Of a stretch of 64,000 nt of DNA, positions 46,495-63,029 are shown piece by piece. The notes beneath the pieces were generated by a model. That model worked only from the letters and a program-made list of their open reading frames with translations. It searched no databases and was not told the origin of the DNA. Source of the DNA: an uncultured Bdellovibrio sp. (GTDB taxonomy: Bacteria > Bdellovibrionota > Bdellovibrionia > Bdellovibrionales > Bdellovibrionaceae); contig CAWVRN010000001.1 in NCBI GenBank assembly GCA_963932905.1, positions 480,001 through 544,000 on the forward strand. Direction: 5' to 3'. Each line of letters opens with the position of its first letter. Position 1 is the first letter of the stretch. A program made the position numbers and the translations under genes.

Positions 46495-46525
46495 CGCATT
46501 TGTTTGATTTTGCTTTGTATTTTCA

Positions 46526-47341
46526 TCAGGCTGCTTCCTGCTTTTTTGTATTTTTTAAAGAGACGGCAGTCTCTTTATCGTCTCGGGAAAACCTGAGCGG
46601 CTTGATTTCAAACTTCGTTAAAATCGTTAGCAAATTTTTAAACGTCATTTCTTGATCGTTAAAGCGTATATTTGTATTTAACCTCTCAGGATCAAATTCA
46701 GTTATATTAAATAGACCTGGGACTCGTTTTTTATCCGCAAACGCTCTACCGCTAAATGACTGCCTAACAACGGCCTCGGCTGAATCAGAGTCACAGGCAA
46801 ACAACATAACACTCACTTTTGAATATCCCAGATAAGCCAATGCAATCTTAGCATAACGTGACCGTGATTTTGTGGTGCGCTCAATTTCTAGTGAACATCG
46901 AACAGAACCGCCGGCGCTTGATCTTAAATCAAAAACCACATCGGGAATTTTTGGAACTTGCTCGCCACCTAAAATCGAAAATGCATCAACTGGATTTCGC
47001 ATAAGCTCATCTTCAAGCCAATACCTTGAAATTAGGTTTCGATTTTTGAGGGCCAAAATTATTCGAGCGGCGATGGCATCGTGTTCAATATAAATTGATT
47101 GCCGCGCCGGTCTTGCTGCATCACCAGAAACATTTCGGCCTTTAGGTGTTAGGATTAAAACTTTGTCACTCGCATTTGAACGACGGAAATGGCCGCATTC
47201 AACGAGCGAATTCCAATACCTAAATTTGTGAGCACGGCTCATTGGGCACATAAACTCAAAAAACAAGTCTTGTGTTAAAAAGCCCCACCGTGCGGCAAAT
47301 TCACGTGCCTCTGACACAATATCATTTCGCCAATGCCTCAT
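46526..47341 (-). CDS. Replication-relaxation (MOB_C-like, PD-(D/E)XK) relaxase
   Basis: wHTH-like N-terminus (LTPKG), EHD, KIPDVVF, LEIERTTKSRSRY; directly downstream of the coupling protein. Confidence 0.78.
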   Translation of the reverse strand: MRHWRNDIVSEAREFAARWGFLTQDLFFEFMCPMSRAHKFRYWNSLVECGHFRRSNASDKVLILTPKGRNVSGDAARPARQSIYIEHDAIAARIILALKNRNLISRYWLEDELMRNPVDAFSILGGEQVPKIPDVVFDLRSSAGGSVRCSLEIERTTKSRSRYAKIALAYLGYSKVSVMLFACDSDSAEAVVRQSFSGRAFADKKRVPGLFNITEFDPERLNTNIRFNDQEMTFKNLLTILTKFEIKPLRFSRDDKETAVSLKNTKKQEAA

Positions 47342-47631
47342 GGGGCCACCTTTTCTTGACCCGCGATAGGGACAAGAACAAAATTTCCGAGTTCAATTTG
47401 GCCATCAACTAAACCGGCCTCGCGCCATTCTAAAATATAATTGGAACTCAATTTATCTTTTAGGCTATCAGGAATTTTAAAGTCTGATCCAATATTCACC
47501 TGACGGATTCTAACTTGGCAGCTTGTTGTACCGACTAAAACGGTCCTTGCTCCTTCAGGGTTTCCGCACTTTGGTTTGCTGGCACATGATGCCAATAGAC
47601 TCAATGAGATACACAAAATAAGTTTACTCAT
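47338..47631 (-). CDS. Small lipoprotein (VirB7/TraV-like position and size)
   Basis: Lipobox LASC, 97 aa, ATGA-coupled on both sides. Confidence 0.6.
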   Translation of the reverse strand: MSKLILCISLSLLASCASKPKCGNPEGARTVLVGTTSCQVRIRQVNIGSDFKIPDSLKDKLSSNYILEWREAGLVDGQIELGNFVLVPIAGQEKVAP

Positions 47632-49283
47632 GAAGCCTTCCTATTTTGTTCAGTCAAAATATGGCTCATGACGTTTTCTGGAGTATTCTGCGCTATCACC
47701 AGCGCTTCTTTATCCGTCTCGATTTTTTTGGCTATGCTTACCGGTTCTGATTTTTTTATTTTCGGAATAACTGGTTTATCCAAATCAAAGGATTTTTTAA
47801 ACTTTAGCCGAATTGGTAGACTTCCTTTTTCGTGCGGTAGAATTAGAACAGCTTCACCGATACCCATTGTTTGTTTAAAGATGTTAGGATGAAACTTGAA
47901 TTCTTCAACATCACGCACCGATCCATCACCAGTCTTTTCTGAACCAAAAAGACTTTGCTTTTGCCGTTCGGTAACTTTTGATCCTTCGCAGGTGCCAATG
48001 ACTTCTGAAAAATAGCTAGCCGACTCCGGCTCATTGGTTCGCATGAATACCTTTAAGTTGGAATTGGTCAGTATGGTATTCATGACGCCATCACCAAGGG
48101 CCTTCAAATCACCAAGGGCTTGATGGGCAAACACAATTCCGACATTGGCACTTCGCGATTTATTTAAAAGTGTTACAAACCCCGGCGTTAGGTACTCCGT
48201 AAAATCATCCAGATAAACTGAAAAGAATTTCTGGCCTTGGTATTTCCCAAGATGCCTTGAGCCCACAGCGCTTTGTAAACACTGAAGAATCATTTTCCCG
48301 GTGGCTTTACCAAGTGTTGGAATCTTTAGGGCCGGAAGTTGGCAGTATACGATTTCGCCGTTTTCAAGCGCCTGCTCAAGATTAATATCCGAGTTTTCGC
48401 TATTAAAAATACCAGCTGACTCACCAACAGTAAAACTTTGCAGCTGCGCAACTAAGCCGCTTGTTCTTTGTTCGCGCTCTTCGCGTGTTAGCTTTAGGAA
48501 ATCTTTAGACCAGGATTGCAATCTTTCGTTTTTCGACTCTGCTGCTAGCTCTGATAATACCTTTTCATTCTTAAGACACTCAATGACCCGGTACGGAGTC
48601 GCTTTGATTTTCGACGCTTCTAAAATCATTAGACAATGCAGAAAAGCATCGTACTGAATGCTTTTAAAGTATTCGTTTTCAAAATTTAAGGCGTTAAATA
48701 CGCGCTCGGCGACTTCTAAGACCGATCCACCAGATAGGGGATTGAATGTGTGACTGATGCCTACATTACAAATTGATAAAATCCGAATATCCTGTTCGCG
48801 GTCGTGTTTTTTTGCATAAGCGTAGAGTTTATCCAATAGATTTGAATCTGATTTACCATCTATCATCAAGAGTCCTCGGCCCTTTTTGATATCATCAATT
48901 GCCCAAGGCAGAATTACAGACTCTGTTTTGCCTGCGTTAGTTGTGCCGACAACTTGGGTATGCATTCGTCTAAAGGTTTGCTTTATAAAAACAGATTTAC
49001 CTTTATCTGAAATCCCAGCATAAACGGCGTCTTCATTTTCCTTTGGTTTAATGACATCATTTTCGATATCTCTTTCTTCAAAAAGCGAAAGCCATTTTTT
49101 CTTTAGCTTAATGAAAGCAATTAGAATTACTGCTGTAATCAATAAGGCAATAGCTATGCGCCACTTAAAATAAAACATTACGATCTGGAATTTGTATTTT
49201 AGCCAAAGAACAAAAATCCCGAGCGTAACAACCAGTATTAAAAATCCTCTATCTGTCATGTCTGATCGATTATTTTCACTCAT
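47628..49283 (-). CDS. virD4: Type IV coupling protein (VirD4/TraD family)
   Basis: Two N-terminal TMs, Walker A GTTNAGKT, IDGK, YLDDF, KSRSA...AHQ. Confidence 0.9.
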   Translation of the reverse strand: MSENNRSDMTDRGFLILVVTLGIFVLWLKYKFQIVMFYFKWRIAIALLITAVILIAFIKLKKKWLSLFEERDIENDVIKPKENEDAVYAGISDKGKSVFIKQTFRRMHTQVVGTTNAGKTESVILPWAIDDIKKGRGLLMIDGKSDSNLLDKLYAYAKKHDREQDIRILSICNVGISHTFNPLSGGSVLEVAERVFNALNFENEYFKSIQYDAFLHCLMILEASKIKATPYRVIECLKNEKVLSELAAESKNERLQSWSKDFLKLTREEREQRTSGLVAQLQSFTVGESAGIFNSENSDINLEQALENGEIVYCQLPALKIPTLGKATGKMILQCLQSAVGSRHLGKYQGQKFFSVYLDDFTEYLTPGFVTLLNKSRSANVGIVFAHQALGDLKALGDGVMNTILTNSNLKVFMRTNEPESASYFSEVIGTCEGSKVTERQKQSLFGSEKTGDGSVRDVEEFKFHPNIFKQTMGIGEAVLILPHEKGSLPIRLKFKKSFDLDKPVIPKIKKSEPVSIAKKIETDKEALVIAQNTPENVMSHILTEQNRKAS

Positions 49284-50229
49284 ATTCATCACCTCCATCT
49301 TGTAGTTTTAAAGAACCACTTAAAACAGCGTCACATTCAGTGCCTGTTTTAAGTTCGATCCATTCACGTTCTGCTTTTAATTTTTCGCCGTAAGACTGCG
49401 CGCGGGCTTGAGCCGTTGCAGCGACCGCTCCAAGGAGTCCGTTTTCAATGCCGCCCTTGGATCGCCCAAGAACATCTGTTTCCATTGAGCCTTGAGCAAG
49501 ACCGCCAACAAAGGTCGTAATAATTTGACCGGCCGTATTCTTGACTCCATCTGAAAAGACTCGACCGATGACACCTGGCTGACCGTCTTTACTTAAAGCA
49601 CTGCCCGCGATCTTTCGAATTTTTCCACTGGGCAAAGATATCTGACTAAACCTAATCTGCGCTCGATCTGTGCCTTTTTGAAAGCTGGCCTCACCATAAA
49701 AACGAGTTCCCGCTGATAAACGCAATCCCGACTCAGTGACTGAATCTAGAATTAGCTCGGCTAACACGGGTACTGATTCCTGCGAAACAATAACGTTATC
49801 AATTAATCGAAGCGGGAGTCTTTCACCAGCGCGAAGTTGAGTTTTAGCATTCTGACCACTTCCAACGATCATCGATGTATTGTAGTTCACTTCATTTCCA
49901 CCACGCGGAACCGAAAACGAATTGACCGGAGGCCCCCATAAATTTTGAGCTGAACTTGCTTGTGTGGATCTATCTGACGGAGAACTTGAGTCTTCGTTGG
50001 TCTTTGCTTTTTCAATTTTTTCTGTAAACTCAACAGGAACCTCTGTCGGTAAGATAAAAACAACAGAAATAAATAAAACTAAGCCGATGACTGCCATATT
50101 CCGAAAGGCCTTGAAATTAAGATCCTTTTTCTGACTGACTTCATTTTCTTTAATAAAAATTGATTTTATTTTTAAAAAGAAATTTTTTATCCCGCTAAAG
50201 ATATTTTTTATTTTAGATATTACTTCCAT
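49276..50229 (-). CDS. virB10: VirB10/TrbI-like core-complex protein
   Basis: TM helix, linker, LSAGTRFYG, RAQIRF, DGQPGVIG, IELKTGT. Confidence 0.8.
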   Translation of the reverse strand: MEVISKIKNIFSGIKNFFLKIKSIFIKENEVSQKKDLNFKAFRNMAVIGLVLFISVVFILPTEVPVEFTEKIEKAKTNEDSSSPSDRSTQASSAQNLWGPPVNSFSVPRGGNEVNYNTSMIVGSGQNAKTQLRAGERLPLRLIDNVIVSQESVPVLAELILDSVTESGLRLSAGTRFYGEASFQKGTDRAQIRFSQISLPSGKIRKIAGSALSKDGQPGVIGRVFSDGVKNTAGQIITTFVGGLAQGSMETDVLGRSKGGIENGLLGAVAATAQARAQSYGEKLKAEREWIELKTGTECDAVLSGSLKLQDGGDEYE

Positions 50230-50930
50230 AACGCAACCTCGGAAATAGATATTGAATTCGTTTTTGAACCTTTCAATTCGACGCGAATGGGTTTTCCTTT
50301 AACCAGATCAGATCGTGCAATGGATACACCGATTTTAAGAGGTTTATCCATTGTTAATTTTGTACTTGATAAAAAAAGGCTATTAACAGTTTTTGAATTG
50401 TCACCTTGAAATACCCATACGTCTTCTGGTTTAATTGTCACAAACTCGTTTGGTTTTAGTTTCAGCGACAAATCAAGTAGAACAAAGTCATATTGAGAAA
50501 TACCAATTCGTTCAATTACTAAAATCAAACCGTTTGCATCGCTTGATTTTCCCGATTTCTGCCATCGTACTTGTGAATTTGCACCATCTCTGAATGACGA
50601 CAGAATATATACAATATAGTCAGCCGAATCCTGGGTAAGAGTTTGGAGCCGAATATTGTATCGCTTTTTATCGGCCACCAGATATAAATTGGTTTTGGCA
50701 CTTCCTCTAAGGGGCTTTATCGTCACAGCCTTATCAAGATATTCAATCTTGAATGCCGATTGATCACCAATGATTGCCGACTGAATGGTTTCCGGAAGCT
50801 GAATGATGGTTGCAATCCCAAGAGCCGTTCTCACTGTTAATATTTGATCGTCACTGTAAACAACTTTTCTTATGTGCGCCGACACACAAAGTGAAAAAAC
50901 AGAAACTATGATAAATATAGAATACCTCAT
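50220..50930 (-). CDS. virB9: VirB9/TrbG-like protein
   Basis: Signal peptide, TALGIATIIQLPETI...IGD...IKP...TNLYL...RY. Confidence 0.8.
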   Translation of the reverse strand: MRYSIFIIVSVFSLCVSAHIRKVVYSDDQILTVRTALGIATIIQLPETIQSAIIGDQSAFKIEYLDKAVTIKPLRGSAKTNLYLVADKKRYNIRLQTLTQDSADYIVYILSSFRDGANSQVRWQKSGKSSDANGLILVIERIGISQYDFVLLDLSLKLKPNEFVTIKPEDVWVFQGDNSKTVNSLFLSSTKLTMDKPLKIGVSIARSDLVKGKPIRVELKGSKTNSISISEVALWK

Positions 50931-51523
50931 CGCGCAGCCTCTTCAGTTTCTTTTGATATATAAACGCCCCAAGGATTCACGATGGTGCGATCATCCGTGC
51001 CGAAGTGAAAAATGAGTTTCATTTCGGTTGCGGCTTTCAGATTATCAAACTCTGTAATACGATCAGCAAGAACCGTGACCTTTTTTTCTTTTAGATCAAC
51101 AGTAATATTCTTTGGATAAACTCGCTGTTTCACTTTCTTTTCGCGAACAAATTTTTGCACTTCGAGCATTGATTTTTCAAAGGCTTGAACCAATGACGGA
51201 ACGACAAAAAACTTTGCTTTACCGAGGGATTCATTAATTGTTTTTTCATCCCAAGAGTATCGATAACTGACATATTCCTTAACCGCAGATTCGATTTGAA
51301 GATCTGTGATTTTTGTTTCAACTTTTGCAACGGCGCCTGTGCTATCTAAAGCGATAACAAGCGGTCCTTGCTTCACAAGATAGAGCACAAGCAAAACTTG
51401 CAGGAACGTAATGGCAAGAAGGCCCCCGCAAAGATACTTAATATTAAAGTTTTCTGTGGCAAACTGCTGCATGGCTTTTGGGTAGAAACTCGTTTGTAGC
51501 GTGATTTTTTTATTTGTATTCAT
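50927..51523 (-). CDS. virB8: VirB8/TrbF-like protein
   Basis: Single TM, PLVIALD, C-terminal NPWGVYI. Confidence 0.72.
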   Translation of the reverse strand: MNTNKKITLQTSFYPKAMQQFATENFNIKYLCGGLLAITFLQVLLVLYLVKQGPLVIALDSTGAVAKVETKITDLQIESAVKEYVSYRYSWDEKTINESLGKAKFFVVPSLVQAFEKSMLEVQKFVREKKVKQRVYPKNITVDLKEKKVTVLADRITEFDNLKAATEMKLIFHFGTDDRTIVNPWGVYISKETEEAAR

Positions 51524-51537
51524 AATGACACCTCCTT

Positions 51538-52413
51538 CTAAGACCCTTTGGGTCTAAATGTTGATTGAATGTTTTGAAATTTCTGACTTGCATAAGATCT
51601 TGTATTTGAAATCATTTCGCGTGATACCTGATGAACAGTGGCAATTCGGGTCGGCAATGCCACGGCAGCTAGTGCCGCAGTAGTTCCAATTGTTTGCGCG
51701 GTAGCCTGAACACCTTCGCCGATGAGGGATCGCACAATCATTGGAGTAAAAAGCATTGCAATAGCAATGACAAAGTTCATCACGATCAAAGTTAAATATG
51801 ATCCATCAGTTTGATAGATGTTTCCAAATGAGAGTGATGTGAGCATTGCCGACATAATCGCCCATATCACCTTCCATAGCGCCACTTCTATTAAGCCCTT
51901 ATAAAGATTTGCTGTAATCCCTGCTGTTTTTGGAAAGACATAGCAGAGAATCATGAGCGGCGCGCAGACCGACAAAAGCACCCAATAAAAATAATAAAGC
52001 GCAACTGTGATGTAGCGTGCGAGCAGCAAAAGCAAAAAGCTTCCAAAGCTGAGTATGGCCATAAAAAGATCATCAAATTTCAGAAGCAACACGTTTTTTG
52101 CGACCGCATAGCTTCTGGATTTTTCTTCTGCCATTCGCATGAAGGTTTCAATTCCAGACATATTGTCAATTTTAAGAGCGAGCCCGTCACAAATATCTAG
52201 AATCAAATTTGAAACTTCTGGAAATGAAGCCAGCAGCAAAGCCGCAACGAACGATCTTTTTATAATGTCTGGATAATTTGAATCACCAGATTTTAAATAC
52301 CCAAACACTACTGAAAATAAAACAGCCACCGGCAGCATGATATAAAATAAATTACTCAGGCCGTGATGAAGGTCTTTAACTAGTGATCCTAAAACTTCTA
52401 GATTTGGAGTCAT
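51538..52413 (-). CDS. virB6: VirB6/TrbL-like polytopic membrane protein
   Basis: Five to six TMs with APLMIL motif, in canonical operon position. Confidence 0.72.
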   Translation of the reverse strand: MTPNLEVLGSLVKDLHHGLSNLFYIMLPVAVLFSVVFGYLKSGDSNYPDIIKRSFVAALLLASFPEVSNLILDICDGLALKIDNMSGIETFMRMAEEKSRSYAVAKNVLLLKFDDLFMAILSFGSFLLLLLARYITVALYYFYWVLLSVCAPLMILCYVFPKTAGITANLYKGLIEVALWKVIWAIMSAMLTSLSFGNIYQTDGSYLTLIVMNFVIAIAMLFTPMIVRSLIGEGVQATAQTIGTTAALAAVALPTRIATVHQVSREMISNTRSYASQKFQNIQSTFRPKGS

Positions 52414-53111
52414 TGGCCACCTCCGATTCTTGGCAGCCTTGTGTCCTTCGGAAGGCTGCCAAAGCCTCGGGATAGCCCCTGATAGTTTTCTTGGAAGTTT
52501 TGGGTCGCAAGTTTCTCTTTTCTAGTATCATAGGCCATATTTTGAGCCATGATTTTTAGCATTTGAGATTGCGTCCGCAGTAGCTGAGTCGAAACACCGA
52601 TCAAAACCGCGAGTGCCTGATTCTGAAGTTTCCCGGCCCCTTGGGGACTAACCACTTGCGCATGAAACAAAATTTTATCTCGTTCGACATCAACTTGGTC
52701 GGCGTAGTCGTACAAATTTCTGTTCATTGAAATGACTTCAGCAACGCTTTGATCTTGCGATCGCATAAGGTCTTCATCCATGCCGCTTGGAACAACTCCA
52801 TACACCGATTGAAGAGCCCTTAGAACGGCATCAGCATTATTCAAATTACCATAGACCCCAGGGTTAAAATTGGGATTAATAATTCGAATCAAGTCAATGC
52901 CGCTCCTGACTCCCGCGTTTATGTCGCGCATGAGATCTAAAGTGTCCTTTCCGTTTTCAAGGACGTTTTTTAAAGTAATGACGGTCTGAATGGCCTGAGC
53001 TAAGATTTGAGTCAGCACCACAACATCACCTCCGAAGAGGTCCGCTTTCGCGGATCTTGGGCCAATAAAAATTATCGCTGCAATTATCATCGCAGAAAAT
53101 TTATTTTTCAT
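52410..53111 (-). CDS. VirB5/TrbJ-like protein
   Basis: Signal peptide, helical Gln-rich body, lies between VirB4 and VirB6. Confidence 0.6.
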   Translation of the reverse strand: MKNKFSAMIIAAIIFIGPRSAKADLFGGDVVVLTQILAQAIQTVITLKNVLENGKDTLDLMRDINAGVRSGIDLIRIINPNFNPGVYGNLNNADAVLRALQSVYGVVPSGMDEDLMRSQDQSVAEVISMNRNLYDYADQVDVERDKILFHAQVVSPQGAGKLQNQALAVLIGVSTQLLRTQSQMLKIMAQNMAYDTRKEKLATQNFQENYQGLSRGFGSLPKDTRLPRIGGGQ

Positions 53112-55579
53112 GACGCGACCGATTTTGAGAAATTTTGGTAGGCCACTCCAAATGGCGCAAGTTCGCTAGCTTTTATTAAGGCATCTTCTAACGATAATCC
53201 ATCCGACTTTAGCGATTCTAGAAACTGATTGTCGCGGGCATCTGATGTAGAAACCCAATATTCCAATGGTGATGGCTCGATACGAATAACTTGCCTTGAT
53301 TCACCCTCCATCAAAAAGCCTTCACTAAATTGACCTTTGCGCTGCTCAAGACTTTGTATCAATCGCAGTTCCTGGGAATTTAATTTTAAAGCGTCGCGCA
53401 GAACAGCGGTGTCGCCCTTTTGAAGCATGACAAGTTTTGTAGCTGTATTATTTAAAATCGCTGGTCCCATTCCGCTTGCAATAATCTCTTCCACGCCTTG
53501 GGTAATAAAAGTGATTCCGCTGCCAGTTTTCCTAAAGGTACGGGCTGCATATTCCATAAAGGAACTGGCCGCAGGACTCTTCAATAGGTCCCATGCCTCA
53601 TCGAGCAAGACTCGTTTTGGAATGGTCCGCTCGGCTTCCACTTGTTCCAAAATAAAATTAGTCAGAATCAAAATCATCACAGATTGTAAATCTGGATATT
53701 GCGATAGCCCCTTTAAATCAAAGGCAACGATTGGTCTATCCGCTTCAATTTTGCCAGCACCATCCAGCAACTTTCCATAAGGCGTTTTGCCGGTCCAAGG
53801 AAAAAGCATTTTACCAATGCGCTTCAAAGATTCGTCGTTATGGCTAAGACAATACTTAGACAAATCGGAAAGTTTTGGTGACCGCGCTTGATTTTCACCA
53901 CGAACTGAATCAAATACTGCTGTAAGTGCTGCTTCTAACTGGACACGGTCAAATCTGGATAATTTCTCGCCGCTATCAACGACCATTTGCTCAATCACAC
54001 TAACAAGACTTTTAATGCGCTCGCCAGTTGGCGGAGCTGATGGGTCGCGAAGTTCAAATGGGTTAATGATATATTCGCCGGTGAGATTAATTTCAAAATA
54101 CTGACCGCCCAGAACTCGAGTCATTTTTTTGTAAGAGCCGCCGATGTCGATAATATACACCCTAGTGCCACGGGCTATTTGCTGAAGCATTAAAAAATTG
54201 TTGGCAAAACTTTTTCCAGATCCGCTTGAACCTGTAACTAAAGCGTTAAAATTACTAAGCCTGGCCGAATAGGAATTCATTGAATATAAAGTCCCTAGTC
54301 TTGTTTTTAAGAGGCATACTGGTTTTTCATCACCAGTGGCCGCGCCAAAGAGTGGGAAAAAATCGACCAGATTGTTTGTTTTCAACTTTTTAGATCTTAC
54401 CAAATTCACCGGTGCCAGCGGCAAATCTGATTTAAATACTTTCCATGCGCCCACGGTCTCTTGAATTCCTTCAGATCCACTGAGCGTTTTAAATTTAGCT
54501 AAGACTTCTTTTGTGTGAAGATTAAGCTTTCGAGCACCGGCTGCTGAATTTTCTTCGCGAATAACAATCATAAGTTGGGCTTGAAAAATTCTTTGCCCAG
54601 TTTCAATAATCTCACGAATCAAATCAGTCGTTTGCGATAGGCGCGATTCACTTTCTAAATCTGAAACCCTATTTCCACTGTTTGCTGATAGGGAGTGTGC
54701 CATTCGCCGCTTTTGGTCAAGCCCCTTCATTTCCTTTGATTGGTCGGGGACGTTGAATGACAAAAATAGTTCATACTTAAAAGGTAAAGCCAAAAAGCCA
54801 CTCATCATTCCCGCAAATGTCATTTCCGGAAGTGTCTTAAGCGTTAGAACTCTAGTTTTTTGACTATCAAGAGTAAAGTCTTCTTGATCCAGCACCAAAT
54901 CCCCAAAAACAAGTTGTTCTCGCGGTGAATTTCCCTCTATTGCAATACTATTGCAATTTACTTTTGGCGCACCAATTGAGGAAGACCGTTTAGGGTTCAG
55001 ATAGCGGTACAATAAATTAATAAAATCATCTTTAGTCAATTCAGACGCTAAAAAACCAAGTGATGAAAGAGATCCTTTTGCGCCCTCTAGGGACTGCGAC
55101 AAGGTTTGCAGCTGATCTTCGTATCCTTTTTCAAATTCAACTGAGAACTTTTTTGTTTGCCCTAATGAAAATGAATTTGGTTTTTGCCTCTGGCTGGTCT
55201 TTATAAAAAAGAATAATCTTGGCCTAAATAATTCTCCATCTTCAGTTTGTTTTAATAAAACATTCGATCTCTTTTGATCGAGCGCGCAAAGAAACTTATT
55301 CTCTGTCGTTAATAGATCGACATGCCTTTTAATGACGCCGCCAACATCAGAATCATTGACCACCATAAACTGAGCTGTAACACCTTCTGGTAAGGAGTTA
55401 GCAAATGAACGCAGTCCGAATGCAAGTTGATTGATACGAGCTTCATCGAAGCACTCAATATCTAACGGCAATAACTCTAATCCTGACGAAAGCGATCCAT
55501 CGCAAAGAATCGCATGTGATACAGGTTTTGATTCAATTTCCCAAAACGGCAGTTGTTCGCATAATGATGCCTGGTTCAT
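53108..55579 (-). CDS. virB4: VirB4/TraC conjugative ATPase
   Basis: Walker A GSSGSGKS, IIDIGGSY, INPF, LLDEAW, RTFRKTG, ITQ. Confidence 0.93.
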   Translation of the reverse strand: MNQASLCEQLPFWEIESKPVSHAILCDGSLSSGLELLPLDIECFDEARINQLAFGLRSFANSLPEGVTAQFMVVNDSDVGGVIKRHVDLLTTENKFLCALDQKRSNVLLKQTEDGELFRPRLFFFIKTSQRQKPNSFSLGQTKKFSVEFEKGYEDQLQTLSQSLEGAKGSLSSLGFLASELTKDDFINLLYRYLNPKRSSSIGAPKVNCNSIAIEGNSPREQLVFGDLVLDQEDFTLDSQKTRVLTLKTLPEMTFAGMMSGFLALPFKYELFLSFNVPDQSKEMKGLDQKRRMAHSLSANSGNRVSDLESESRLSQTTDLIREIIETGQRIFQAQLMIVIREENSAAGARKLNLHTKEVLAKFKTLSGSEGIQETVGAWKVFKSDLPLAPVNLVRSKKLKTNNLVDFFPLFGAATGDEKPVCLLKTRLGTLYSMNSYSARLSNFNALVTGSSGSGKSFANNFLMLQQIARGTRVYIIDIGGSYKKMTRVLGGQYFEINLTGEYIINPFELRDPSAPPTGERIKSLVSVIEQMVVDSGEKLSRFDRVQLEAALTAVFDSVRGENQARSPKLSDLSKYCLSHNDESLKRIGKMLFPWTGKTPYGKLLDGAGKIEADRPIVAFDLKGLSQYPDLQSVMILILTNFILEQVEAERTIPKRVLLDEAWDLLKSPAASSFMEYAARTFRKTGSGITFITQGVEEIIASGMGPAILNNTATKLVMLQKGDTAVLRDALKLNSQELRLIQSLEQRKGQFSEGFLMEGESRQVIRIEPSPLEYWVSTSDARDNQFLESLKSDGLSLEDALIKASELAPFGVAYQNFSKSVAS

Positions 55580-55899
55580 AATTCACCCCCTTTGTTAAAT
55601 TTTCGATATTGAAAATCTTGTGAGTTGGCCGAGAAAACAGTTGGCGAGATAAGATGCTCAAAATAATGTTGCAGAAACTGATCAGGTTTTCCTTTCTTAA
55701 AGAAAAACAAAATCAAAAAGAGTCCAAGACTTGTTCCAAAAACCATTGGAATCTTCATCGAGGTCGATCCAAAAATTAAATTTTGAACTGACAAATTTAA
55801 AAGCAAGATCAATACGTCTGACAGCTCCAGACCCAAAATTTTATTTTTTGTTTCTAGTGTTCTTGGGACCGATGAGGTCAATAGATTAAAATCACTCAT
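55576..55899 (-). CDS. VirB3-like membrane protein
   Basis: KILGLELSD, two TMs, between pilin and VirB4. Confidence 0.65.
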   Translation of the reverse strand: MSDFNLLTSSVPRTLETKNKILGLELSDVLILLLNLSVQNLIFGSTSMKIPMVFGTSLGLFLILFFFKKGKPDQFLQHYFEHLISPTVFSANSQDFQYRKFNKGGEL

Positions 55900-56183
55900 T
55901 AGCGCACCGTCTGCGATATAAAATCAACAATCGCCTGTGCGCCAAAACCGATGATACTACCAAGAATCGCATACCACATATGCGTCTTGGCTTTTTCATT
56001 GCCGCTCATCAAACTAAAAGCCGCCCATGCAATTCCAATAATAGAAAGTGTCGGTAAAATAACTCGGGTCAATTTCGTCTGAATTCCCATTAATGAAGAC
56101 TCAACACTTGCAAGTCCAAGCTCTGGAACGATCAATAATGCTGCCGTCAGCATAAAAATAAATAAATATGATTTTCTGTTCAT
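55899..56183 (-). CDS. virB2: VirB2/TrbC-like pilin
   Basis: Leader ending PELGLA followed by two hydrophobic helices (ILGSIIGFGAQAIV); GGAGG RBS. Confidence 0.8.
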   Translation of the reverse strand: MNRKSYLFIFMLTAALLIVPELGLASVESSLMGIQTKLTRVILPTLSIIGIAWAAFSLMSGNEKAKTHMWYAILGSIIGFGAQAIVDFISQTVR

Positions 56184-56208
56184 AAATGTACCTCCTGTGT
56201 TAGTTGTT

Positions 56209-56622
56209 TTAAGATGCAAGGCTGTCCTCCAGTCCCTCTGATTTTTCCGGAAACAAGCAAAGGAAAATATTTTCTGGGATTAGCTGAATTCGTAGCGCAA
56301 TAAAACTTCCAGCTAGTTTTCCTTCACCGATTCGATACCAGCTTGATTTCATTTCGCCTGTCGGTAATTGGTATTCTTCAAGACTGAGGACAACGTACTT
56401 GGTATCATCATTGTCATCAGGCAGTATGAAATATTGAGTATTTGGGTGTGTGAATAGTTTAAGGCGAAATTTTTTAGATCCTGCTTTTAAATACGCTACG
56501 CCAACGCTTTCACCTTCAATGACTTCACCTGATGAAGTCATTTCCCCAGTATAAACGCCATATTTTTCTGATTTACGAATAGGGATCACATTACTAAATG
56601 AAAAATCGCTAGATTTATTCAT
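56209..56622 (-). CDS. Hypothetical beta-rich protein, DUF736-like
   Basis: Two related units VGVAYLK...FRLKL and WYRIGEG...IALRI. Confidence 0.5.
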   Translation of the reverse strand: MNKSSDFSFSNVIPIRKSEKYGVYTGEMTSSGEVIEGESVGVAYLKAGSKKFRLKLFTHPNTQYFILPDDNDDTKYVVLSLEEYQLPTGEMKSSWYRIGEGKLAGSFIALRIQLIPENIFLCLFPEKSEGLEDSLAS

Positions 56623-56870
56623 GCTGAAAACCTTTCCATTTCAAACATTTCAACGACATCCTCCGTCCAGCCACATTCTGAGCAGGTTAGATAGCCGTTT
56701 TGAAAATCGGTAAGACCAGAACATTCTGGACAGCATTCACCATCATCAGGAGCACCAGATTTTTTAAAGTTAAGGTAACGTCGCTTTAACGTCGGACTTG
56801 GTTTGCGACGCTCAATAAGTTCTCGTTCTGTGCGATAGATATCGCGCTTATCTTTTAAAGTTCTAGACAT
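56619..56870 (-). CDS. Small zinc-ribbon protein
   Basis: CPEC...CSEC; basic N-terminus; GGAGG RBS. Confidence 0.7.
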   Translation of the reverse strand: MSRTLKDKRDIYRTERELIERRKPSPTLKRRYLNFKKSGAPDDGECCPECSGLTDFQNGYLTCSECGWTEDVVEMFEMERFSA

Positions 56871-57079
56871 TAGAAATTCCTCCATTGGTTTTCTTCATGG
56901 GTTTTGCGAAATGGCTTTGACTCTAGTCGCTCCCAATCGCGTACGGTTAAATCAGCAGCTGAAAACGATTTTTTTAATCTTTCCCAAAAACTGATAGGTT
57001 CGGCTTTCTCAAGCGTAACAAGCGACAGATTCAATTCCGGCTGAGCTTGGCTACTTTTAAATTTTTCTCTTGCATTCAT
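56870..57079 (-). CDS. Small hypothetical protein, first gene of the transfer operon
   Basis: AGGAGGT RBS, TAATG coupling to the next gene. Confidence 0.65.
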   Translation of the reverse strand: MNAREKFKSSQAQPELNLSLVTLEKAEPISFWERLKKSFSAADLTVRDWERLESKPFRKTHEENQWRNF

Positions 57080-57246: not shown

Positions 57247-57340
57247 CAAGGGTGGCGAATGGTCGCCACCCTTGGTTTTCAAGAAGTATTGAATTTTTAA
57301 TGTGTTAGCTTAAAAAACAAAGACTGGCGGGGTTCCGCCA
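57247..57340. promoter_or_regulatory. Two TGGCG-N6-CGCCA palindromes upstream of the transfer operon (putative activator sites)
   Basis: Copies at 57253-57268 (within 12-bp IR 57247-57274) and 57325-57340. Confidence 0.55.
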
Positions 57341-57394: not shown

Positions 57395-58951
57395 TTAGCG
57401 AACAACTATAGGGATTTCAGCGATCTGGCTTTTTGGAATTAAATAGACTCCGTATTGAATGCAGGACGCACGAACGTCATCATTGTCGAAGTGGCCAGTC
57501 ACAAGGCACCTGATCGCGGCCTCAGGCATATCCTGAAGCCATTTAAGACCGGTGTCTCCGTCTCCCAAGTCGTAATCAAAAAGTAAAGTGCAATTGTCGG
57601 GTTCACTATCGATTTCGTGCTTGATAGGTAATAGCTCGTTGCCATGGCTCATGAACTTAGTTTGCTTTAGTAACTGGGTATCATCGAACTTCAATTGCCA
57701 TAAAGCGCGCCCGGACTCTTGGTCATCAAGTACATATATTTTTGAGTCAGAATTAAATTTAAGTCGTGGCAAATACCATTTCGCTCGGTCATTGACTGGT
57801 AGTCGTATTGTCAGAGTCGATCCTAAACCGAGGCTTGAATTAACTTCAATTGAACCACCCCACGCTGATAAGAATTCTTTCGCATGCCAAAGGCCGACAC
57901 CAGTCCCATTTTTTTTGCCAAACGAAAAATCTTTATCGAAAATATTTGGTTGAATTTCTTTTGCAATCCCGCATCCAGTATCTGCAACAATAATTTCAAC
58001 TTCAGCTCCCAAATCTCTGCACCTGATATTGATTCGGCCAGCATTGTTCATTGCCTCTATTGAATTTGTAACTAAGTTTCCTAAAATGGATCGCATCTCA
58101 ACAGGAATATGAGTAGCCAAAGTCGATAAAATCATATCATCGATTTCAAAATGAAAATCAATTCCCTTTGGTACATATAAATCGAGCTCCCGTCGGGCCT
58201 GAACGAGAGTTCCATAAATGTCAGTTTTAGTTTGATCTGAAAGTTCCTCAGTTTTCGTATCGTCAAGTTTGGCAACTAAATCTTTTATTTGATTTATTGT
58301 AACCTGAAGCAAATCTTTATCTTTTGCCACACTAGACGGCAAGCGACCAGGAATTCGCATCAAAGCGGCCAGCGGAGTTCGTAAGTTATGTCGAACCTGG
58401 TGCGCTAGTTCGCTTTTAGCGACCTTTTTTTGTAGTTCGAGATCCCGATGAAACTGCTCGACCAATCGTTTTCTCATAAATCTGGTTTGGGGAATAGAAA
58501 CCAGATTTAAAATTAACCAAATGAAAAATGCATAAGAAACAAATCTAAATCGTGAATACTCATAGATAATTGTATCGGCTGGTCCATCACTTAGTTCGTT
58601 TGAAATTGTAGTTGAATATTCATCTGATGAAAACGCTTTCCAAAAAGTCTTTTTGCCTTCAAGTTCTGCGCTTGGTGGCAAAATGAATGAGCGATCAGGT
58701 ACCGTAGATTTGTACCTGATACTTATAAATTTCGAAAGTCTTGCTTCTTGCAGAATCAAAGAGGTTTCTCGAAAATCACCAACTTTAACGAAACGAGACA
58801 ACAGCTTAGTATTATCCTCAGCGACTGATTGAATATACAACGTATTAGAAATCAATGCCAACCCGAAAAAAATCAATAGGACCAAAGCAGACACAACAAT
58901 TTGCCGATTTTCAAAATCTTTAATTCTAGTCTCGGGAGTCATCGCAGTCAT
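57395..58951 (-). CDS. Membrane histidine kinase with C-terminal atypical receiver-like domain
   Basis: Two TMs, QVRHNLRTP H-box, NLVTNS, DTGCG, GTGVGL; then VLDD...FDYDLG...LVTG. Confidence 0.9.
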   Translation of the reverse strand: MTAMTPETRIKDFENRQIVVSALVLLIFFGLALISNTLYIQSVAEDNTKLLSRFVKVGDFRETSLILQEARLSKFISIRYKSTVPDRSFILPPSAELEGKKTFWKAFSSDEYSTTISNELSDGPADTIIYEYSRFRFVSYAFFIWLILNLVSIPQTRFMRKRLVEQFHRDLELQKKVAKSELAHQVRHNLRTPLAALMRIPGRLPSSVAKDKDLLQVTINQIKDLVAKLDDTKTEELSDQTKTDIYGTLVQARRELDLYVPKGIDFHFEIDDMILSTLATHIPVEMRSILGNLVTNSIEAMNNAGRINIRCRDLGAEVEIIVADTGCGIAKEIQPNIFDKDFSFGKKNGTGVGLWHAKEFLSAWGGSIEVNSSLGLGSTLTIRLPVNDRAKWYLPRLKFNSDSKIYVLDDQESGRALWQLKFDDTQLLKQTKFMSHGNELLPIKHEIDSEPDNCTLLFDYDLGDGDTGLKWLQDMPEAAIRCLVTGHFDNDDVRASCIQYGVYLIPKSQIAEIPIVVR

Positions 58952-59757
58952 TGATCACCGCTTATTTTTGAGACTTTGTACTTTGATATTTTTAGCGGAG
59001 CAGATTTCAAAATTGGGATATCAAAATAGTTTAATTCTACTGATACAAGATCCGGTAAAAAAGATTTGTGCAATTCATCTACTGAGATAGTGCCGAGCAA
59101 AGGGCTGATTTTTGATATGAATTCTCTAGAAATCTGCCATGGCACGCTTGAAACGGATTCATTAGGTCCATTTTTATTTTTTAACCAACAAAAACTCGGA
59201 ATCGACTCTAAAAATGATCGTCGCTGCGAAGTTTCCATTGATTCTGACAGTGCAAAGCCAAAAGATATTCTCTCGGCATCTGAAATCTGACAAACCAAAC
59301 CAAATAGGCTATTTGGCGTTGCCATTTGAAAAAAACGGACTTCACAGTCTTTATTCATATCTAAAAAGCTATTGGGCGAAAGAATTTTAGATTTTACTTC
59401 ACGAAGTGGTATCTCATTCTCTAGATGCTCATTTAAATAAAATCTTTCTAAGGCTTCAAATTTTGCGTGAGATTCAGGGCAATGACTTCCGCCAGAAACC
59501 GCTAGTCCGATGGAATCAACACTTTTTGAGACACAAATGATTCTCTCAATACATTCAGCCACTGATTTTTCAAAGGCAATTTCACGATTATCGTCAACGC
59601 CGCAACCCTCGATTTCAATTCCTTGCCAGGTAATCTTTGTGGAAAAATCAAATAATCCGGGTACAAGTTCGCCTGAACCTTTAAATTCTGTAAAGGTAGG
59701 TGCAAGCACGGATCGATTTAGATAAAGCCATGTGGCTAACGGAGTTTTATGCGCCAT
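58948..59757 (-). CDS. Minimal YcaO-like protein
   Basis: Three YcaO-type motifs in order: GCG...AFEKSVAECIER; SIGLA...HAKFEALER; GFA...RRSFLES. Confidence 0.65.
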   Translation of the reverse strand: MAHKTPLATWLYLNRSVLAPTFTEFKGSGELVPGLFDFSTKITWQGIEIEGCGVDDNREIAFEKSVAECIERIICVSKSVDSIGLAVSGGSHCPESHAKFEALERFYLNEHLENEIPLREVKSKILSPNSFLDMNKDCEVRFFQMATPNSLFGLVCQISDAERISFGFALSESMETSQRRSFLESIPSFCWLKNKNGPNESVSSVPWQISREFISKISPLLGTISVDELHKSFLPDLVSVELNYFDIPILKSAPLKISKYKVSKISGDQ

Positions 59758-61274
59758 AATTGATTATTTGCATAGAGTTCAGATAATTCGATCTTCCATG
59801 GCTTTCTTACTAACGCTGCATAAGGCAGAGCCATCAATGGTACAACGGTTGGCCTAGTAAGAGCATCAAAATGCAGCTCCTTAAGTTTTTTGATTCGTTT
59901 TTCTTTGTCATCGGTAGCCATATAATGGGCTAGCCATTGCGCGCGATCATGTTTATTCAGACCCAGCACACCAGAATTGAGTGAATATGAAATAAGTCCT
60001 ATGTCTTCCATAAAGCCAGTATCAGTGAATCCAATAAAAGCGTGCGGAGTGTCTTCAGGTTGAAGATCATTTTTGAAATCAGGAATATACCCAATCAAAC
60101 TCGCATCCACTTGTGGTAAAAGTTCTTTGATAGGAGTTGCCCATTCCTCGAGAGTGCCTCGGCGGATAATTCCAAGTTGAATTTTTTGATTCGGTTCTGT
60201 TGTTTCGTTGTCTAATTCCATTTTAAAGCGATTTTGTTGCTCGGCATTTAGCCCACCCTCACTTAGGTTTGGAAAAAATTCAGACCGTTGCTCAACACCA
60301 GCAACTCCATTATATATTTTATTGAATGCGATTTGCATCTTTTTACCGATATAGCGTCGTTCTGCTGAACTAAATTCTTTTTCGCCTTTTTGGGTAAAAA
60401 CTAAGACAAGCGTTCTAATTTTCATCGTCACTAGAAGGTCAGTATCTGAATTTTTTTGTGCAAAATTAATTACGTCCTCTGGCTTGGATGCATCTATTGT
60501 CGTAAGGTGATCTACAATCCCATTTGTAAAAGCAGCTAAACTATTAGTTCCAGATTTAAGATCCGTTGGAATAAAAAAGATTTTATTTGCAACATCGTCT
60601 GTTGCAAAATAATGATTTGGATTTTTTAGTAATTGAATTTTTCCATTTCCGTCGTCGCTATCAACTGAATAGGGGCCACTAGTTTCGCTATAATTTATGA
60701 TTTTAAGCGATATAGGATCAGCACTTGATTTTGGAATGATCGCAAAATCAATCGCCCCGAGCATTGGTAACAAAAATGATTTTTTACCTTTCGCATTTAG
60801 GAAAACTGAATTGCCCTCTTGTCTGATCCCAGGACATTCTTCTTCGGTAGATTTAATCACAATTCCTGGGCAGACTATATCTCGAAAATTTCCATGTGTG
60901 TTACCCGAAAGGACTAAAAGCCGTTTAAGAGAAAAAACAACATCAGTAGCGGTAATACTTTTTCCTGAAATAGTTTTAAGACTGTCTCTAATAGTGAGTT
61001 TAAGTTCGTCACCAATCCATTCGACCTTTTCTGCTACGCCCGGCTCGACAGAGCCACTTGCTGAGATTTCAACAAGTGGCGAGTAAACATTTTCCAAAAA
61101 TATATATTCATAATCAAAATTTATATTAGTTGGCTCGTAGGCTGTTGACTTGAGTCGCACTGGAAATGCGACTCTTAGAGTTTTATTTTGTTGTTGTACT
61201 TTCATAGAAACAGCTCCTCCGAGCATCAGTAAAATAGATAGGACAATAATAGTTTTTATTTTATTTATTGTCAT
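59736..61274 (-). CDS. Orphan family-5 (Opp/Dpp-like) solute-binding protein
   Basis: ENVYSPLV, PGVAE, GKSITATDVVFSLKR, SGPY...LLKNP; N-terminal hydrophobic anchor; start reassigned to MTINK. Confidence 0.85.
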   Translation of the reverse strand: MTINKIKTIIVLSILLMLGGAVSMKVQQQNKTLRVAFPVRLKSTAYEPTNINFDYEYIFLENVYSPLVEISASGSVEPGVAEKVEWIGDELKLTIRDSLKTISGKSITATDVVFSLKRLLVLSGNTHGNFRDIVCPGIVIKSTEEECPGIRQEGNSVFLNAKGKKSFLLPMLGAIDFAIIPKSSADPISLKIINYSETSGPYSVDSDDGNGKIQLLKNPNHYFATDDVANKIFFIPTDLKSGTNSLAAFTNGIVDHLTTIDASKPEDVINFAQKNSDTDLLVTMKIRTLVLVFTQKGEKEFSSAERRYIGKKMQIAFNKIYNGVAGVEQRSEFFPNLSEGGLNAEQQNRFKMELDNETTEPNQKIQLGIIRRGTLEEWATPIKELLPQVDASLIGYIPDFKNDLQPEDTPHAFIGFTDTGFMEDIGLISYSLNSGVLGLNKHDRAQWLAHYMATDDKEKRIKKLKELHFDALTRPTVVPLMALPYAALVRKPWKIELSELYANNQLWRIKLR

Positions 61275-61281
61275 AAAAATT

Positions 61282-61587
61282 TTACTTAGTTTTAGCTTCA
61301 GACGCAGACGCAGCCCCAGGACCACCGCCAAAGCAAACTGTAGTTGGATGCACACCACCCCTTTGAATTTGACCCTCAGCTTCAAGTAAACTCAAAATAT
61401 CTTGATCAAAACTGACACACTGGTTTTCTGAAACACTCAGTGTTTTCGTTTCACCAAGTAGCTTAATCGCCCATGCGATTTGAGTAAGCTGAAGTGGAGT
61501 GAGTTTTTTTGCCTGGGCTTCATCAGCAAAGCTAGATGAGCCGATTCCCAACATTCCTGCAATCATGATTAATAACGTTTTTTTCAT
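61282..61587 (-). CDS. Small Sec-secreted protein; candidate signal/RiPP precursor
   Basis: MKK-hydrophobic-SFA|DE signal; two Cys; C-terminal HPTTVCFGGGPGAASASEAKTK; ATGA overlap with the regulator. Confidence 0.7.
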   Translation of the reverse strand: MKKTLLIMIAGMLGIGSSSFADEAQAKKLTPLQLTQIAWAIKLLGETKTLSVSENQCVSFDQDILSLLEAEGQIQRGGVHPTTVCFGGGPGAASASEAKTK

Positions 61588-62975
61588 TCTTTTTCCCCCT
61601 GTAAAAGTTCACGTTTAAGTTCAATTCCATATTTTTTCATTTTTTCTCTGACAGTACTGCGACTGATATTCAGCAATCGTGAAGCTGCTGAAATCGATCC
61701 ACTTTCTTCGATAGCTTTTAAAACTATATTTTTCTCATCTGCCATCTGTGTGAATTTTAAGGTTTCCAAATCCACTTTTTTTCTTGAAACTAAATTTGGA
61801 TCTTTTCGATCTTTAAGTAATTCAATTTCAAGATGCGGCCCATTTGAAAGGTTTGTCAAAAATCGAATACCGTGTTCAAGTTCCCTAACATTGCCCGGCC
61901 AACTGAGTTTTTTAAGTTGATCAACAGATGATTCGAGCAGAATTAGTTCTCGGCCTTGTTCTAAGTTGGCTATTTTTAAAAAATGCTGCGCCAATATAGG
62001 AATATCTTCTGGGCGCTCGCGCAATGGTTTGATGTGAATTGGAAGCACGTTAAGCCTAAAGAACAAGTCTTCACGAAAAAGATTTCGCTCAATTAGATTT
62101 TCTAATGGTGCATTTGTCGCGGCAACAAGTCGAAAATCAACTTTTTTTGTTTCGTTAGAGCCTACAGGCATTATCGTTTTTTCTTGCAACACCCGAAGCA
62201 AACTTGCTTGCAAATGTTTTGGTAATTCACCGATCTCATCAAGAAATAGTGTCCCACCATTGGCGGCCTCAAAATATCCAGTTCGATCTTTCGCAGCACC
62301 AGTAAACGATCCTTTTTCATGGCCAAAGAGTTCACTCTCAAAGACACCGGCTGAAATGCTAGCAAGATTGACTGGGATGAATGGTTTATTTGCTCTTGAA
62401 GAGGCACTATGAATAGCTCTGGCAACTTTTTCTTTTCCGGTGCCCATTTCACCACGAATTAGAACTGTGTCATTAGATGGGCCAAATTTTAGAATAAGAC
62501 GTGCAACCTCAGCCATAGCCTCGGATACTCCAATCATGCCAATTGATTCAATCAGCTTTTGATTGTCACTGTGACTAGAAATTGAAACAGGTTTCGTGCG
62601 TTTTTCAACTTCACGGCAAGCTCTGTGCAAAATACTTAACAATTTCGCCTCGCCTATATCCTTTTCAATAAAAAATACGGCACCAGACTCTAACGAGTCA
62701 TTGTGCGCATCCACAGAGTCATCACCTGAGAGTCCAAGTACGGTAAGATTTGGATTATGTTCTTTTAATTTTTTAATTGTTTCTGGCCCTTTGACGTCGG
62801 GCATATGGTAGTCAATTAACGCAAGTGAAAATGGGATTAGTTTTTGCCTAACAATGGCAATGGCTTCATCGCCGCTTGAAACAGACTTCACGAAAAAGCC
62901 TTCGTCTTCAAGAAAAGAACCCATGGCTTTTCTAAAAACTGCATCGTCATCGACCAAAAGGATATTGTGCTTCAT
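61584..62975 (-). CDS. NtrC-family sigma54-dependent response regulator
   Basis: Receiver (LVDDD, IDYHMP), Walker A GEMGTGKE, ESELFGHEKGSFTGA, FLDEIG, WPGNVREL, Fis-type HTH. Confidence 0.95.
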   Translation of the reverse strand: MKHNILLVDDDAVFRKAMGSFLEDEGFFVKSVSSGDEAIAIVRQKLIPFSLALIDYHMPDVKGPETIKKLKEHNPNLTVLGLSGDDSVDAHNDSLESGAVFFIEKDIGEAKLLSILHRACREVEKRTKPVSISSHSDNQKLIESIGMIGVSEAMAEVARLILKFGPSNDTVLIRGEMGTGKEKVARAIHSASSRANKPFIPVNLASISAGVFESELFGHEKGSFTGAAKDRTGYFEAANGGTLFLDEIGELPKHLQASLLRVLQEKTIMPVGSNETKKVDFRLVAATNAPLENLIERNLFREDLFFRLNVLPIHIKPLRERPEDIPILAQHFLKIANLEQGRELILLESSVDQLKKLSWPGNVRELEHGIRFLTNLSNGPHLEIELLKDRKDPNLVSRKKVDLETLKFTQMADEKNIVLKAIEESGSISAASRLLNISRSTVREKMKKYGIELKRELLQGEKE

Positions 62976-63013: not shown

Positions 63014-63029
63014 TACAAATACGGTGCCC
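63014..63029 (-). promoter_or_regulatory. Near-consensus sigma54 promoter
   Basis: GGGCAC-N5-TTGTA with correct spacing, but GT in place of the conserved -12 GC. Confidence 0.4.

Follow-up and report, generated by a model that had tools for sequence, protein, structure and literature searches.

What is a YcaO-fold protein doing in an operon built around a peptide-binding protein and a histidine kinase, just upstream of the genes for a conjugation machine? The question comes from a stretch of 64,000 nucleotides (nt), which we call the window, from an uncultured Bdellovibrio sp. (assembly GCA_963932905.1, contig CAWVRN010000001.1, positions 480,001 to 544,000). At 57395-62975 of the window, on the minus strand, lies a cassette of five tightly packed genes, each of which we checked in the sequence as an open reading frame (ORF). 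The best-supported part of our answer is that a small secreted protein and a solute-binding protein (SBP) act through a hybrid kinase on a sigma54 activator, the four together making up a self-amplifying sensor of a periplasmic signal. The weakest part is the step that would give the YcaO its role, a proposed modification of the small protein. The cassette matters beyond this one genome. It belongs to a phylum-wide module, present at more than 40 loci and in 42 of 401 genomes, that sets the smallest YcaO domain we have seen here (269 residues and partner-less) between an SBP and a kinase. With so compact a system one can ask what a YcaO core is able to do unaided, and test whether gene transfer in predatory bacteria is under cell-cell control.

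In order of transcription, the first gene (61584-62975) encodes the regulator, a 463-residue response regulator of the NtrC type, that is, a sigma54 enhancer-binding protein. It overlaps by 4 nt the gene for the small secreted protein (61282-61587; 101 residues), which has a Sec-type signal peptide, a small helical or hairpin domain and a tail that reads PTTVC85FGGGPG and onward. A spacer of 7 nt leads to the SBP gene (59736-61274, taking the ATG as the start, where the listed ORF extends to a TTG at 61385). This is an orphan family-5 SBP with a signal peptide and no permease beside it. Its gene overlaps by 22 nt that of the minimal YcaO-fold protein (58948-59757; 269 residues), which lacks a signal peptide and is cytoplasmic, and this in turn overlaps by 4 nt the gene for the hybrid sensor histidine kinase (57395-58951; 518 residues), with two transmembrane helices and a periplasmic domain of about 100 residues. 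All five genes lie on the minus strand. So do the genes that follow. After 315 nt come three small ORFs (69, 88 and 137 residues, the second a zinc ribbon) that open the operon for a type IV secretion system (T4SS; operon start at 53108..57079), and then the TrbC/VirB2 pilin, TraL/VirB3 and TraC/VirB4. An earlier reading of this DNA, made from the sequence alone, had described five co-oriented genes joined by overlapping or 7-nt junctions, directly upstream of and co-directional with the conjugation operon. Both parts of that description stand.

The protein that raises the question is invisible to the usual searches. It matches no Pfam family even at E ≤ 10, and NCBIfam is equally empty; the Pfam YcaO model PF02624 has no match in the whole genome, not even to one of the four copies of the protein that the genome encodes. 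Its fold is another matter. The AlphaFold2 (AF2) model has a mean predicted local distance difference test score (pLDDT) of 88.9, and when it was used to search with Foldseek the top 11 matches were all YcaO proteins, at E values down to 5e-8. VIA-align superposed residues 1-269 of the model onto residues 18-370 of the 6ci7 chain, an enzyme of M. kandleri, with a Z score of 17.0 and a root-mean-square deviation of 3.4 Å over 239 residues. Solved YcaOs overall gave Z scores of 14-17 over 229-255 aligned residues; the best match outside the family reached 7.7. The sequence leads to the same place by a longer route. There are 40 close homologues, from Bdellovibrio or Bdellovibrionaceae where they are named, and the Pfam domain is recognised in none of them; a profile built from these alone matched no solved relative. 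An exhaustive search widened the family to 195 clusters at 50% identity, all of about 255-340 residues. Among 58 more distant clusters, 54 matched Pfam YcaO at E ≤ 0.1 and 46 scored above its gathering cut-off. A profile of 87 family sequences then matched solved YcaOs directly, at E values from 6e-11 to 5e-3 (MJ1094 6e-11, McbD 3e-8, TruD 3e-5). Because most of the distant members pass the Pfam threshold and the family profile finds the solved structures, homology to YcaO follows transitively. The sequence-only reading had called the protein a mini-YcaO. Fold and family profile confirm that it is a minimal YcaO, one that Pfam does not see.

The likely business end of the protein is conserved as well. 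Across the 87 family sequences E68, E71, E101, E104 and R105 never vary, and at least 90% have E184. The pairs E68/E71 and E101/E104/R105, with E184, fall on the ExxER, ExxER and R-x3-E motifs that we take to be the ATP/Mg site of YcaOs, and the second and third acidic motifs align with their counterparts in MJ1094 and McbD. Set beside the solved YcaOs (the archaeal thioamide-forming 6ci7 and 6peu, McbD, LynD/TruD and E. coli YcaO), the cassette protein shares the whole-domain fold and the acidic motifs, whereas it is about 100 residues shorter than the smallest of them, has no Pro-rich tail and no E1-like, RiPP recognition element (RRE), TfuA or dehydrogenase partner (RiPP standing for ribosomally synthesised and post-translationally modified peptide), and sits in a two-component operon instead of a biosynthetic cluster. 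Fused forms of the family yielded one nitroreductase-YcaO (E 4e-6) and none with a kinase or an SBP, which is weak evidence. An Atlas look-up again returned a YcaO assignment, with a hint of short YcaO clusters in other phyla. One locus may hold something smaller yet: at 7833-8192 of L085 (G250:C14), a 119-residue ORF upstream of the SBP gene has, by eye, two YcaO-like A..E..ER motifs. The genome concerned has no YcaO profile match, and the ORF may be either a fragment or a still smaller YcaO relative.

The small secreted protein also has no Pfam family, even at E ≤ 10, and none in NCBIfam. It has 42 homologues, all of 79-101 residues, which share the Sec-type signal peptide, a conserved body, the motif P-T-T-[IV]-C-[VF]-G and a variable tail of Gly, Ala and Ser; C85 is invariant. 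The mature protein would be a chain of about 75 residues with a conserved Cys near its C terminus. Its AF2 model (pLDDT 60.6, tail 87-101 disordered) is too uncertain for a fold search. Further afield, an ORF in the same position upstream of the SBP gene occurs in 36 of 39 scorable loci and has a Cys within its last 24 residues in 33 of those 36. In distant loci these ORFs range from 54 to 177 residues and keep the signal peptide, an L-x3-G-[IV] motif and the C-terminal or near-C-terminal Cys, with ends such as GTICF, GSICW, TICL, SRCY and SSICGKQK. The position of the Cys goes with the subtype of YcaO: it is penultimate beside several YcaOs with a PHPxG tail, followed by three or four residues beside the type of about 290 residues that ends EFVG, and followed by a Gly-rich tail beside the short type. 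These groups are clades, so the tracking is not independent evidence.

Which gene is the small protein's closest partner? In the cassette the SBP gene separates its gene from that of the YcaO, and the would-be precursor carries a Sec signal and no leader. In the genus g130 there are four pairs of small ORF and SBP gene per genome, apart from a regulator-YcaO-kinase operon. Dispersed as they are, the pairs stay adjacent, and small protein and SBP therefore look like the tightest pair of the module. We also considered a disulfide between the two proteins. The only conserved Cys residues of the SBP are a pair, kept in 40-41 of 46 sequences; no odd one is conserved, which leaves that idea unsupported.

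The three remaining proteins are more familiar. The SBP scores 39.2 bits against Pfam SBP_bac_5 (cut-off 32.4), and its sole sequence match in the Protein Data Bank (PDB) is Borrelia OppAIV at E 1.3e-4, which makes it a remote family-5 member. The sequence-only reading had called it an orphan. That holds for the window part of the element, where Pfam finds no ATP-binding cassette (ABC) permease or ATPase, and none of the related loci inspected, by tblastn or ORF listing, has a permease beside the SBP gene. Elsewhere in the genome, at C3:152105, is an Opp-type permease (OppC_N), the single such match, and import is therefore possible. The kinase matches Pfam HATPase_c at 2.1e-21, with a weak HisKA match; at least 85% of 44 kinases share H188, the N, G1 and G2 boxes and, in the periplasmic domain, R61, L67 and F75. 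It had been read as a hybrid, and Pfam would have us think otherwise, as its Response_reg model finds no C-terminal receiver. The receiver is there: in the last 124 residues the signature DD-D-T-K is invariant in 13 of 13 sequences, and hhalign matches the region to the receiver of the regulator with 86.9% probability (E 4e-6). This domain contains a near-invariant Cys. The regulator matches Response_reg (1.2e-21), Sigma54_activat (1.5e-65) and HTH_8 (2.3e-9); a GSFTGA loop of the GAFTGA type can be read in its sequence, and rpoN is present in the genome. The best-scoring models for regulator and kinase are of the AtoC/ZraR and AtoS/ZraS types, far below their cut-offs.

How far does the arrangement hold elsewhere? 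The sequence-only reading had proposed to look for homologous loci, and its five-gene order extends well beyond this genome; the refuting condition it had set, a lack of synteny in other genomes, is thus not borne out. A scan of one genome per species gave 15 related contigs, from metagenome-assembled genomes (MAGs) of Bdellovibrionota type save one labelled Chlamydiae. The five genes occur in the same order in 12 of the 15; the remaining three contigs are cut by the contig start. The first T4SS genes follow the cassette in seven of the 15. The odd one out by name, L001 (CALBHK010000007.1, an uncultured Chlamydiae MAG), encodes cassette and T4SS proteins 65-95% identical to those of the window, and is probably a mis-binned contig of Bdellovibrionota or of a mobile element.

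Of 401 genomes sampled from the phylum, 42 encode a member of the YcaO family and 47 one of the SBP orthogroup; 37 are on both lists. We added 20 loci around distant YcaO members (about 25% identity) and 11 around SBPs in genomes with no YcaO match to the first profile. The pooled set comes to 44 loci that hold a YcaO-family ORF, with the tally corrected by hand. In 42 of these the SBP gene immediately precedes the YcaO gene (exceptions L053 and L056), in 41 the kinase gene immediately follows it (exceptions L060, L081 and L083), and in 29 there is a sigma54 regulator upstream, with three loci unscorable. From these adjacencies the core of the module is SBP-YcaO-kinase.

The window's genome itself has four cassettes. 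Besides that of the window (C1), a second ICE-like element, in the sense of an integrative and conjugative element (ICE), occupies C22:14481-34283 and carries the same cassette at 44-71% protein identity, divergent from its T4SS operon. The other two (C30:497-6227 and C56:507-5517) are near-identical to each other and more diverged; both lie at contig starts, and the sequence after the kinase gene is not assembled. Their YcaO has 292 residues and ends EFVG, and their small protein ends SSICGKQK. DNA near-identical to the cassette turns up in metagenomes from groundwater, freshwater, wastewater and activated sludge. In three metatranscriptomic runs from two studies there are contigs, 90-99% identical, that match portions of each of the five genes and of the T4SS start, and two of them bridge the junction between the small gene and the SBP gene. 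These contigs show presence in RNA libraries only, and their support for expression is weak.

The control regions tell us how the cassette might be switched on. A sigma54-type -24/-12 promoter, GGCACCGTATTTGT, lies at 63015..63028 on the minus strand, 39 nt upstream of the ATG of the regulator. Among the 27 scorable cassettes 21, some of them distant, have the strict motif GGCA[CT]-N5-TTG[CT] in the corresponding position; the whole 4.55-Mb genome has 90 occurrences, both strands counted. Scored by their own position weight matrix (PWM), the cassette promoters reach 15.6-26.6, where the 99th percentile of the background is 10.0. A sigma54 activator encoded as the first gene behind a conserved sigma54 promoter implies positive autoregulation: the operon should amplify itself. 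Some 183-185 nt before the sigma54 promoter, 11 loci have the palindrome TGGCGG-N4-CCGCCA, spaced as the site of an activator is; loci without a nearby T4SS are among them. Between the two, nearly all close loci conserve GGTGCA-N3-TGACCATG (at about 63121-63139 in the window), where a second regulator or a DNA-bending protein might bind.

The same palindrome stands upstream of the T4SS operon. There it occurs twice, 54-72 nt apart, in 10 loci that include the window and the divergent C22 element. In the window the two copies are TGGCGGGGTTCCGCCA at 57325..57340 and, 72 nt from it, TGGCGAATGGTCGCCA at 57253..57268, about 110 nt upstream of a TTGC[AT] element. The C22 control region, 700 nt between cassette and T4SS operon, has three. 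Genome-wide there are 10 matches to the palindrome, five of them in these two cassette/T4SS control regions, and none at the T4SS operons of the genome that have no cassette. The leader of the T4SS operon (57080-57200) is itself conserved in eight of eight aligned loci. Within it are a CACTT[AG] box, a short inverted repeat, a ribosome site that reads AAGGAGGTGCAT without a mismatch and, about 55 nt ahead of the start codon, the invariant TTGC[AT].

Putting these pieces together, we read the cassette as a conserved, self-activating sensory operon of Bdellovibrionota, wired in this element to T4SS genes, in which the YcaO modifies the small protein. Taken as a whole chain this is somewhat less probable than an even chance. 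The sequence-only reading proposed much the same chain, and the evidence supports it in part. The signal would be the small protein itself or a peptide freed from its C terminus, and the receptor would be the SBP, roles that we assign because the two genes stay adjacent where they are split from the other three. The SBP with its ligand would switch the kinase, and the kinase would control the activator. The activator would then bind TGGCGG-N4-CCGCCA both ahead of its own promoter and ahead of the T4SS operon, and build-up of the signal would thereby be coupled to expression of the transfer genes. Before Sec export, the minimal YcaO would spend ATP on altering the C-terminal tail of the small protein, with its Cys, the simplest product being a thiazoline, and the modification would tune the signal or give it specificity. 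A fuller version makes this a RiPP-type pheromone circuit in a diderm: a partner-less YcaO modifies the Cys, the product leaves by Sec, SBP and kinase sense it, conjugation is switched on, and the different cassettes are separate pherotypes. That version we hold tentatively and consider rather unlikely.

A good deal weighs against the chain, and much of it concerns the YcaO. The window protein ends KVSKISGDQ and lacks the Pro-rich C-terminal motif, where relatives of about 315-340 residues end PHP[LI]G; cyclodehydratases need that motif. It has Cys52 (codon 59602-59604) where at least 90% of 34 close homologues keep the Arg of a GRG motif. Pfam finds no E1-like, RRE or TfuA partner in the cassette or the element and no TfuA in the genome, over which E1-like proteins were not searched. 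The C-terminal Cys is missing from three of the 36 small proteins encoded beside a YcaO (L066, L078 and L081), whose tails are Thr/Gly-rich. In g130 the YcaO stays with the regulator and the kinase instead of with the pairs of small protein and SBP. G156, a single contig that is 99% complete, has a small protein (177 residues, ending WICF), an SBP and a kinase in a row, and the broad profile finds no YcaO-family match anywhere in it; its relative G301 likewise has a small protein (ending VVCF), an SBP and a kinase, with no gene between the last two. The signal, receptor and kinase part can thus exist without a YcaO.

Other objections concern the output. A hybrid kinase implies a phosphorelay, yet the cassette has no Hpt gene. 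VirB4 is encoded within the fetched stretch at 13 of the 44 loci, and the link to a T4SS is accordingly frequent, not obligatory. The related loci are not independent of one another, and the counts overstate the support they give. The sequence-only reading had the regulator drive its own operon, the transfer genes or both. A conserved sigma54 promoter at the regulator gene and the shared palindrome speak for this; upstream of the T4SS operon, however, the PWM finds no sigma54 promoter (best scores 0.3-6.2, within background), and a scan with a looser pattern, at 40 matches for 42.6 expected, is uninformative. Nor is there a consensus sigma70 site on the minus strand of 57080-57394. Palindrome 1, read on the minus strand, is also a terminator-like hairpin with a T tract after the kinase gene, which tells against a simple model of control. 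The window's own cassette has no palindrome upstream of its promoter, even with three mismatches allowed (63030-63260). With its Cys52 and its lost palindrome, this cassette is possibly a weakened or rewired copy.

Could the circuit be right and the YcaO be working for someone else? It might spare the small protein and serve the kinase, the regulator or the SBP before export, either as an ATP-dependent modifier or as a nucleotide-sensing gate of kinase output. We think this unlikely, yet it is the main rival. The YcaO gene is translationally coupled to the kinase gene by their 4-nt overlap and has a kinase gene behind it in 41 of 44 loci, and regulator, YcaO and kinase are the unit that g130 keeps together, with the pairs of small protein and SBP elsewhere; the kinase receiver, too, has its near-invariant Cys. 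Modules that do without a YcaO still have the C-terminal Cys motif. Some solved YcaOs act on whole proteins, and the top structural matches, 6ci7 and 6peu, are archaeal enzymes whose substrate is McrA. But no YcaO is known from a two-component system, nor did our literature searches find one, and linkage to the YcaO gene is just as tight for the SBP gene, which overlaps it by 22 nt and adjoins it in 42 of 44 loci, as for the kinase gene. The C-terminal tail rich in Cys, Ser, Thr and Gly that nearly every small protein has also resembles a YcaO substrate, and the lack of a YcaO-kinase fusion counts a little, as weak evidence, on the same side. Should the YcaO prove to act on the kinase or the regulator, two-component signalling would gain an accessory of a new kind.

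The other alternatives change what is sensed or what the product is for. The SBP might detect an external, non-self ligand, peptides of prey or environment, with the small protein as an adaptor or inhibitor of the ZraP/CpxP kind and the position of the T4SS reflecting environmental gating. The AtoC/ZraR and AtoS/ZraS models that score best, if far below their cut-offs, lean this way, as do the conserved folded part that the small protein has beside its tail, the 31 of 44 cassettes with no VirB4 in the fetched stretch, and hosts that are predatory, judging by the names of related records. Yet an operon that activates itself and includes a secreted protein has the layout of an autoinducer circuit, four diverged cassettes in one genome resemble pherotype-like families, and the YcaO is left without a role; we rate the idea improbable. 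Very unlikely, in our view, is an autoinduced ribosomal peptide that serves mainly as an antimicrobial, metal-binding or predation factor, its SBP-kinase-activator arm sensing the product as in lantibiotic producers. YcaO products are mostly bioactive peptides, and the operon is autoregulated. Sec-exported, Cys-modified bufferins do bind copper, in the account given of them (PMC12452194). The cassette, against this, has no immunity gene, exporter, protease or dehydrogenase, what is conserved in the small protein is a body of about 60 residues and a single Cys in place of a core rich in Cys, Ser and Thr, and the palindrome ties the cassette to T4SS operons. Most unlikely of all is that the SBP passes a peptide to the chromosomal Opp-type permease, in the manner of PrgZ/TraC, with the imported peptide then taking effect in the cytoplasm, perhaps with the YcaO as target or intermediary. 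The OppC_N-type permease gene at C3:152105 exists, family-5 SBPs normally serve ABC importers, and the YcaO is cytoplasmic; but SBP, YcaO and kinase genes are adjacent at more than 40 loci with no permease beside any of those inspected, and four cassette SBPs would have to share the single Opp-type match.

How new would a periplasmic-signal sensor of this kind be? Bufferins, Cys-modified ribosomal peptides with a Sec signal instead of a leader, are called highly unusual for bacterial RiPPs in the source that describes them (PMC12452194). They are the sole printed precedent we have met for the proposed route, in which a Cys-containing precursor with a Sec signal is handled by a cytoplasmic enzyme before export (PMC12452194). 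The system as set out there differs in its MNIO enzyme with a DUF2063 partner and in copper binding, and no SBP, kinase or activator figures in that part of the account (PMC12452194).

For the sensory layout one likeness is staphylococcal agr (AgrB-D-C-A), where a single autoinduced operon supplies the signal precursor, in which one Cys is crucial, together with the enzyme that modifies it, a sensor kinase and a response regulator. Unlike agr, the cassette shows no homology to AgrB or AgrD, and it combines Sec export, sensing by an SBP, a diderm host and a sigma54 activator. The enterococcal pheromone plasmids with PrgZ/TraC and the Rap-Phr system of ICEBs1 have in common with it a peptide-binding protein on a mobile element, or a peptide signal, that gates conjugation; they rely on Opp import and cytoplasmic regulators, whereas the cassette has a kinase, a YcaO and no adjoining permease. 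Orphan periplasmic binding proteins encoded with a kinase, sometimes a hybrid one, are also found in LuxP-LuxQ, TorT-TorS and ChvE-VirA. The output of the last of these in Agrobacterium is the virB T4SS operon, as in the output proposed for the cassette. All three use SBPs of other families with other ligands and have no co-encoded small protein or YcaO.

Peptide control of conjugation is textbook material for plasmids and ICEs of Gram-positive bacteria. To our knowledge, control of conjugation by ribosomal peptides has no established counterpart in diderms, and YcaOs are known for their part in natural-product clusters and in the modification of archaeal McrA; they are not known from operons for signal transduction. 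Full-text searches, in which subscription journals were not covered, found no published description of a YcaO in the context of two-component systems, SBPs or conjugation. The combination of SBP-assisted two-component sensing, peptide control of conjugation and YcaO chemistry appears to be undescribed.

It remains to describe the element in which the cassette travels. Beyond the T4SS operon start, the minus strand at 43671..53111 encodes VirB6/8/9/10-like proteins, a coupling protein, three ORFs without assignment and a large serine recombinase that abuts the chromosomal rpoD gene. The element is ICE-like, with its left end near 43.6 kb; the right end falls outside the window. The sequence-only reading had called it an ICE outright. 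A T4SS, a coupling protein and a serine recombinase agree with that name; no relaxase was recognised on the window part of the element. The sole lead toward one is a 271-residue ORF at 46526-47341, between the coupling protein and the recombinase, with a faint MobC-like match (E 0.008, far below the cut-off).

Past the window, in the next 20 kb of the contig (L075, G000:C1:544001-564000), what looks like cargo follows. At 1643-5204 of that stretch are genes for a radical SAM/DUF3641 protein, a SAM methyltransferase, a MIP channel and a PNP-family phosphorylase. The nearest ABC importer to the cassette, 6-9 kb past the end of the window (5909-9261 of the stretch), has its own SBP, of family 1/8; beyond it are rhodanese/ArsR, DsrE and a cysteine desulfurase-like gene. 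This cargo may handle organo-arsenic compounds or sulfur. PADLOC gave no sign of a defence system, matching just the AAA+ domain of the regulator. The chromosomal part of the window, at 31673-36360, has an ordinary three-gene operon of PrkA, DUF444 and SpoVR.

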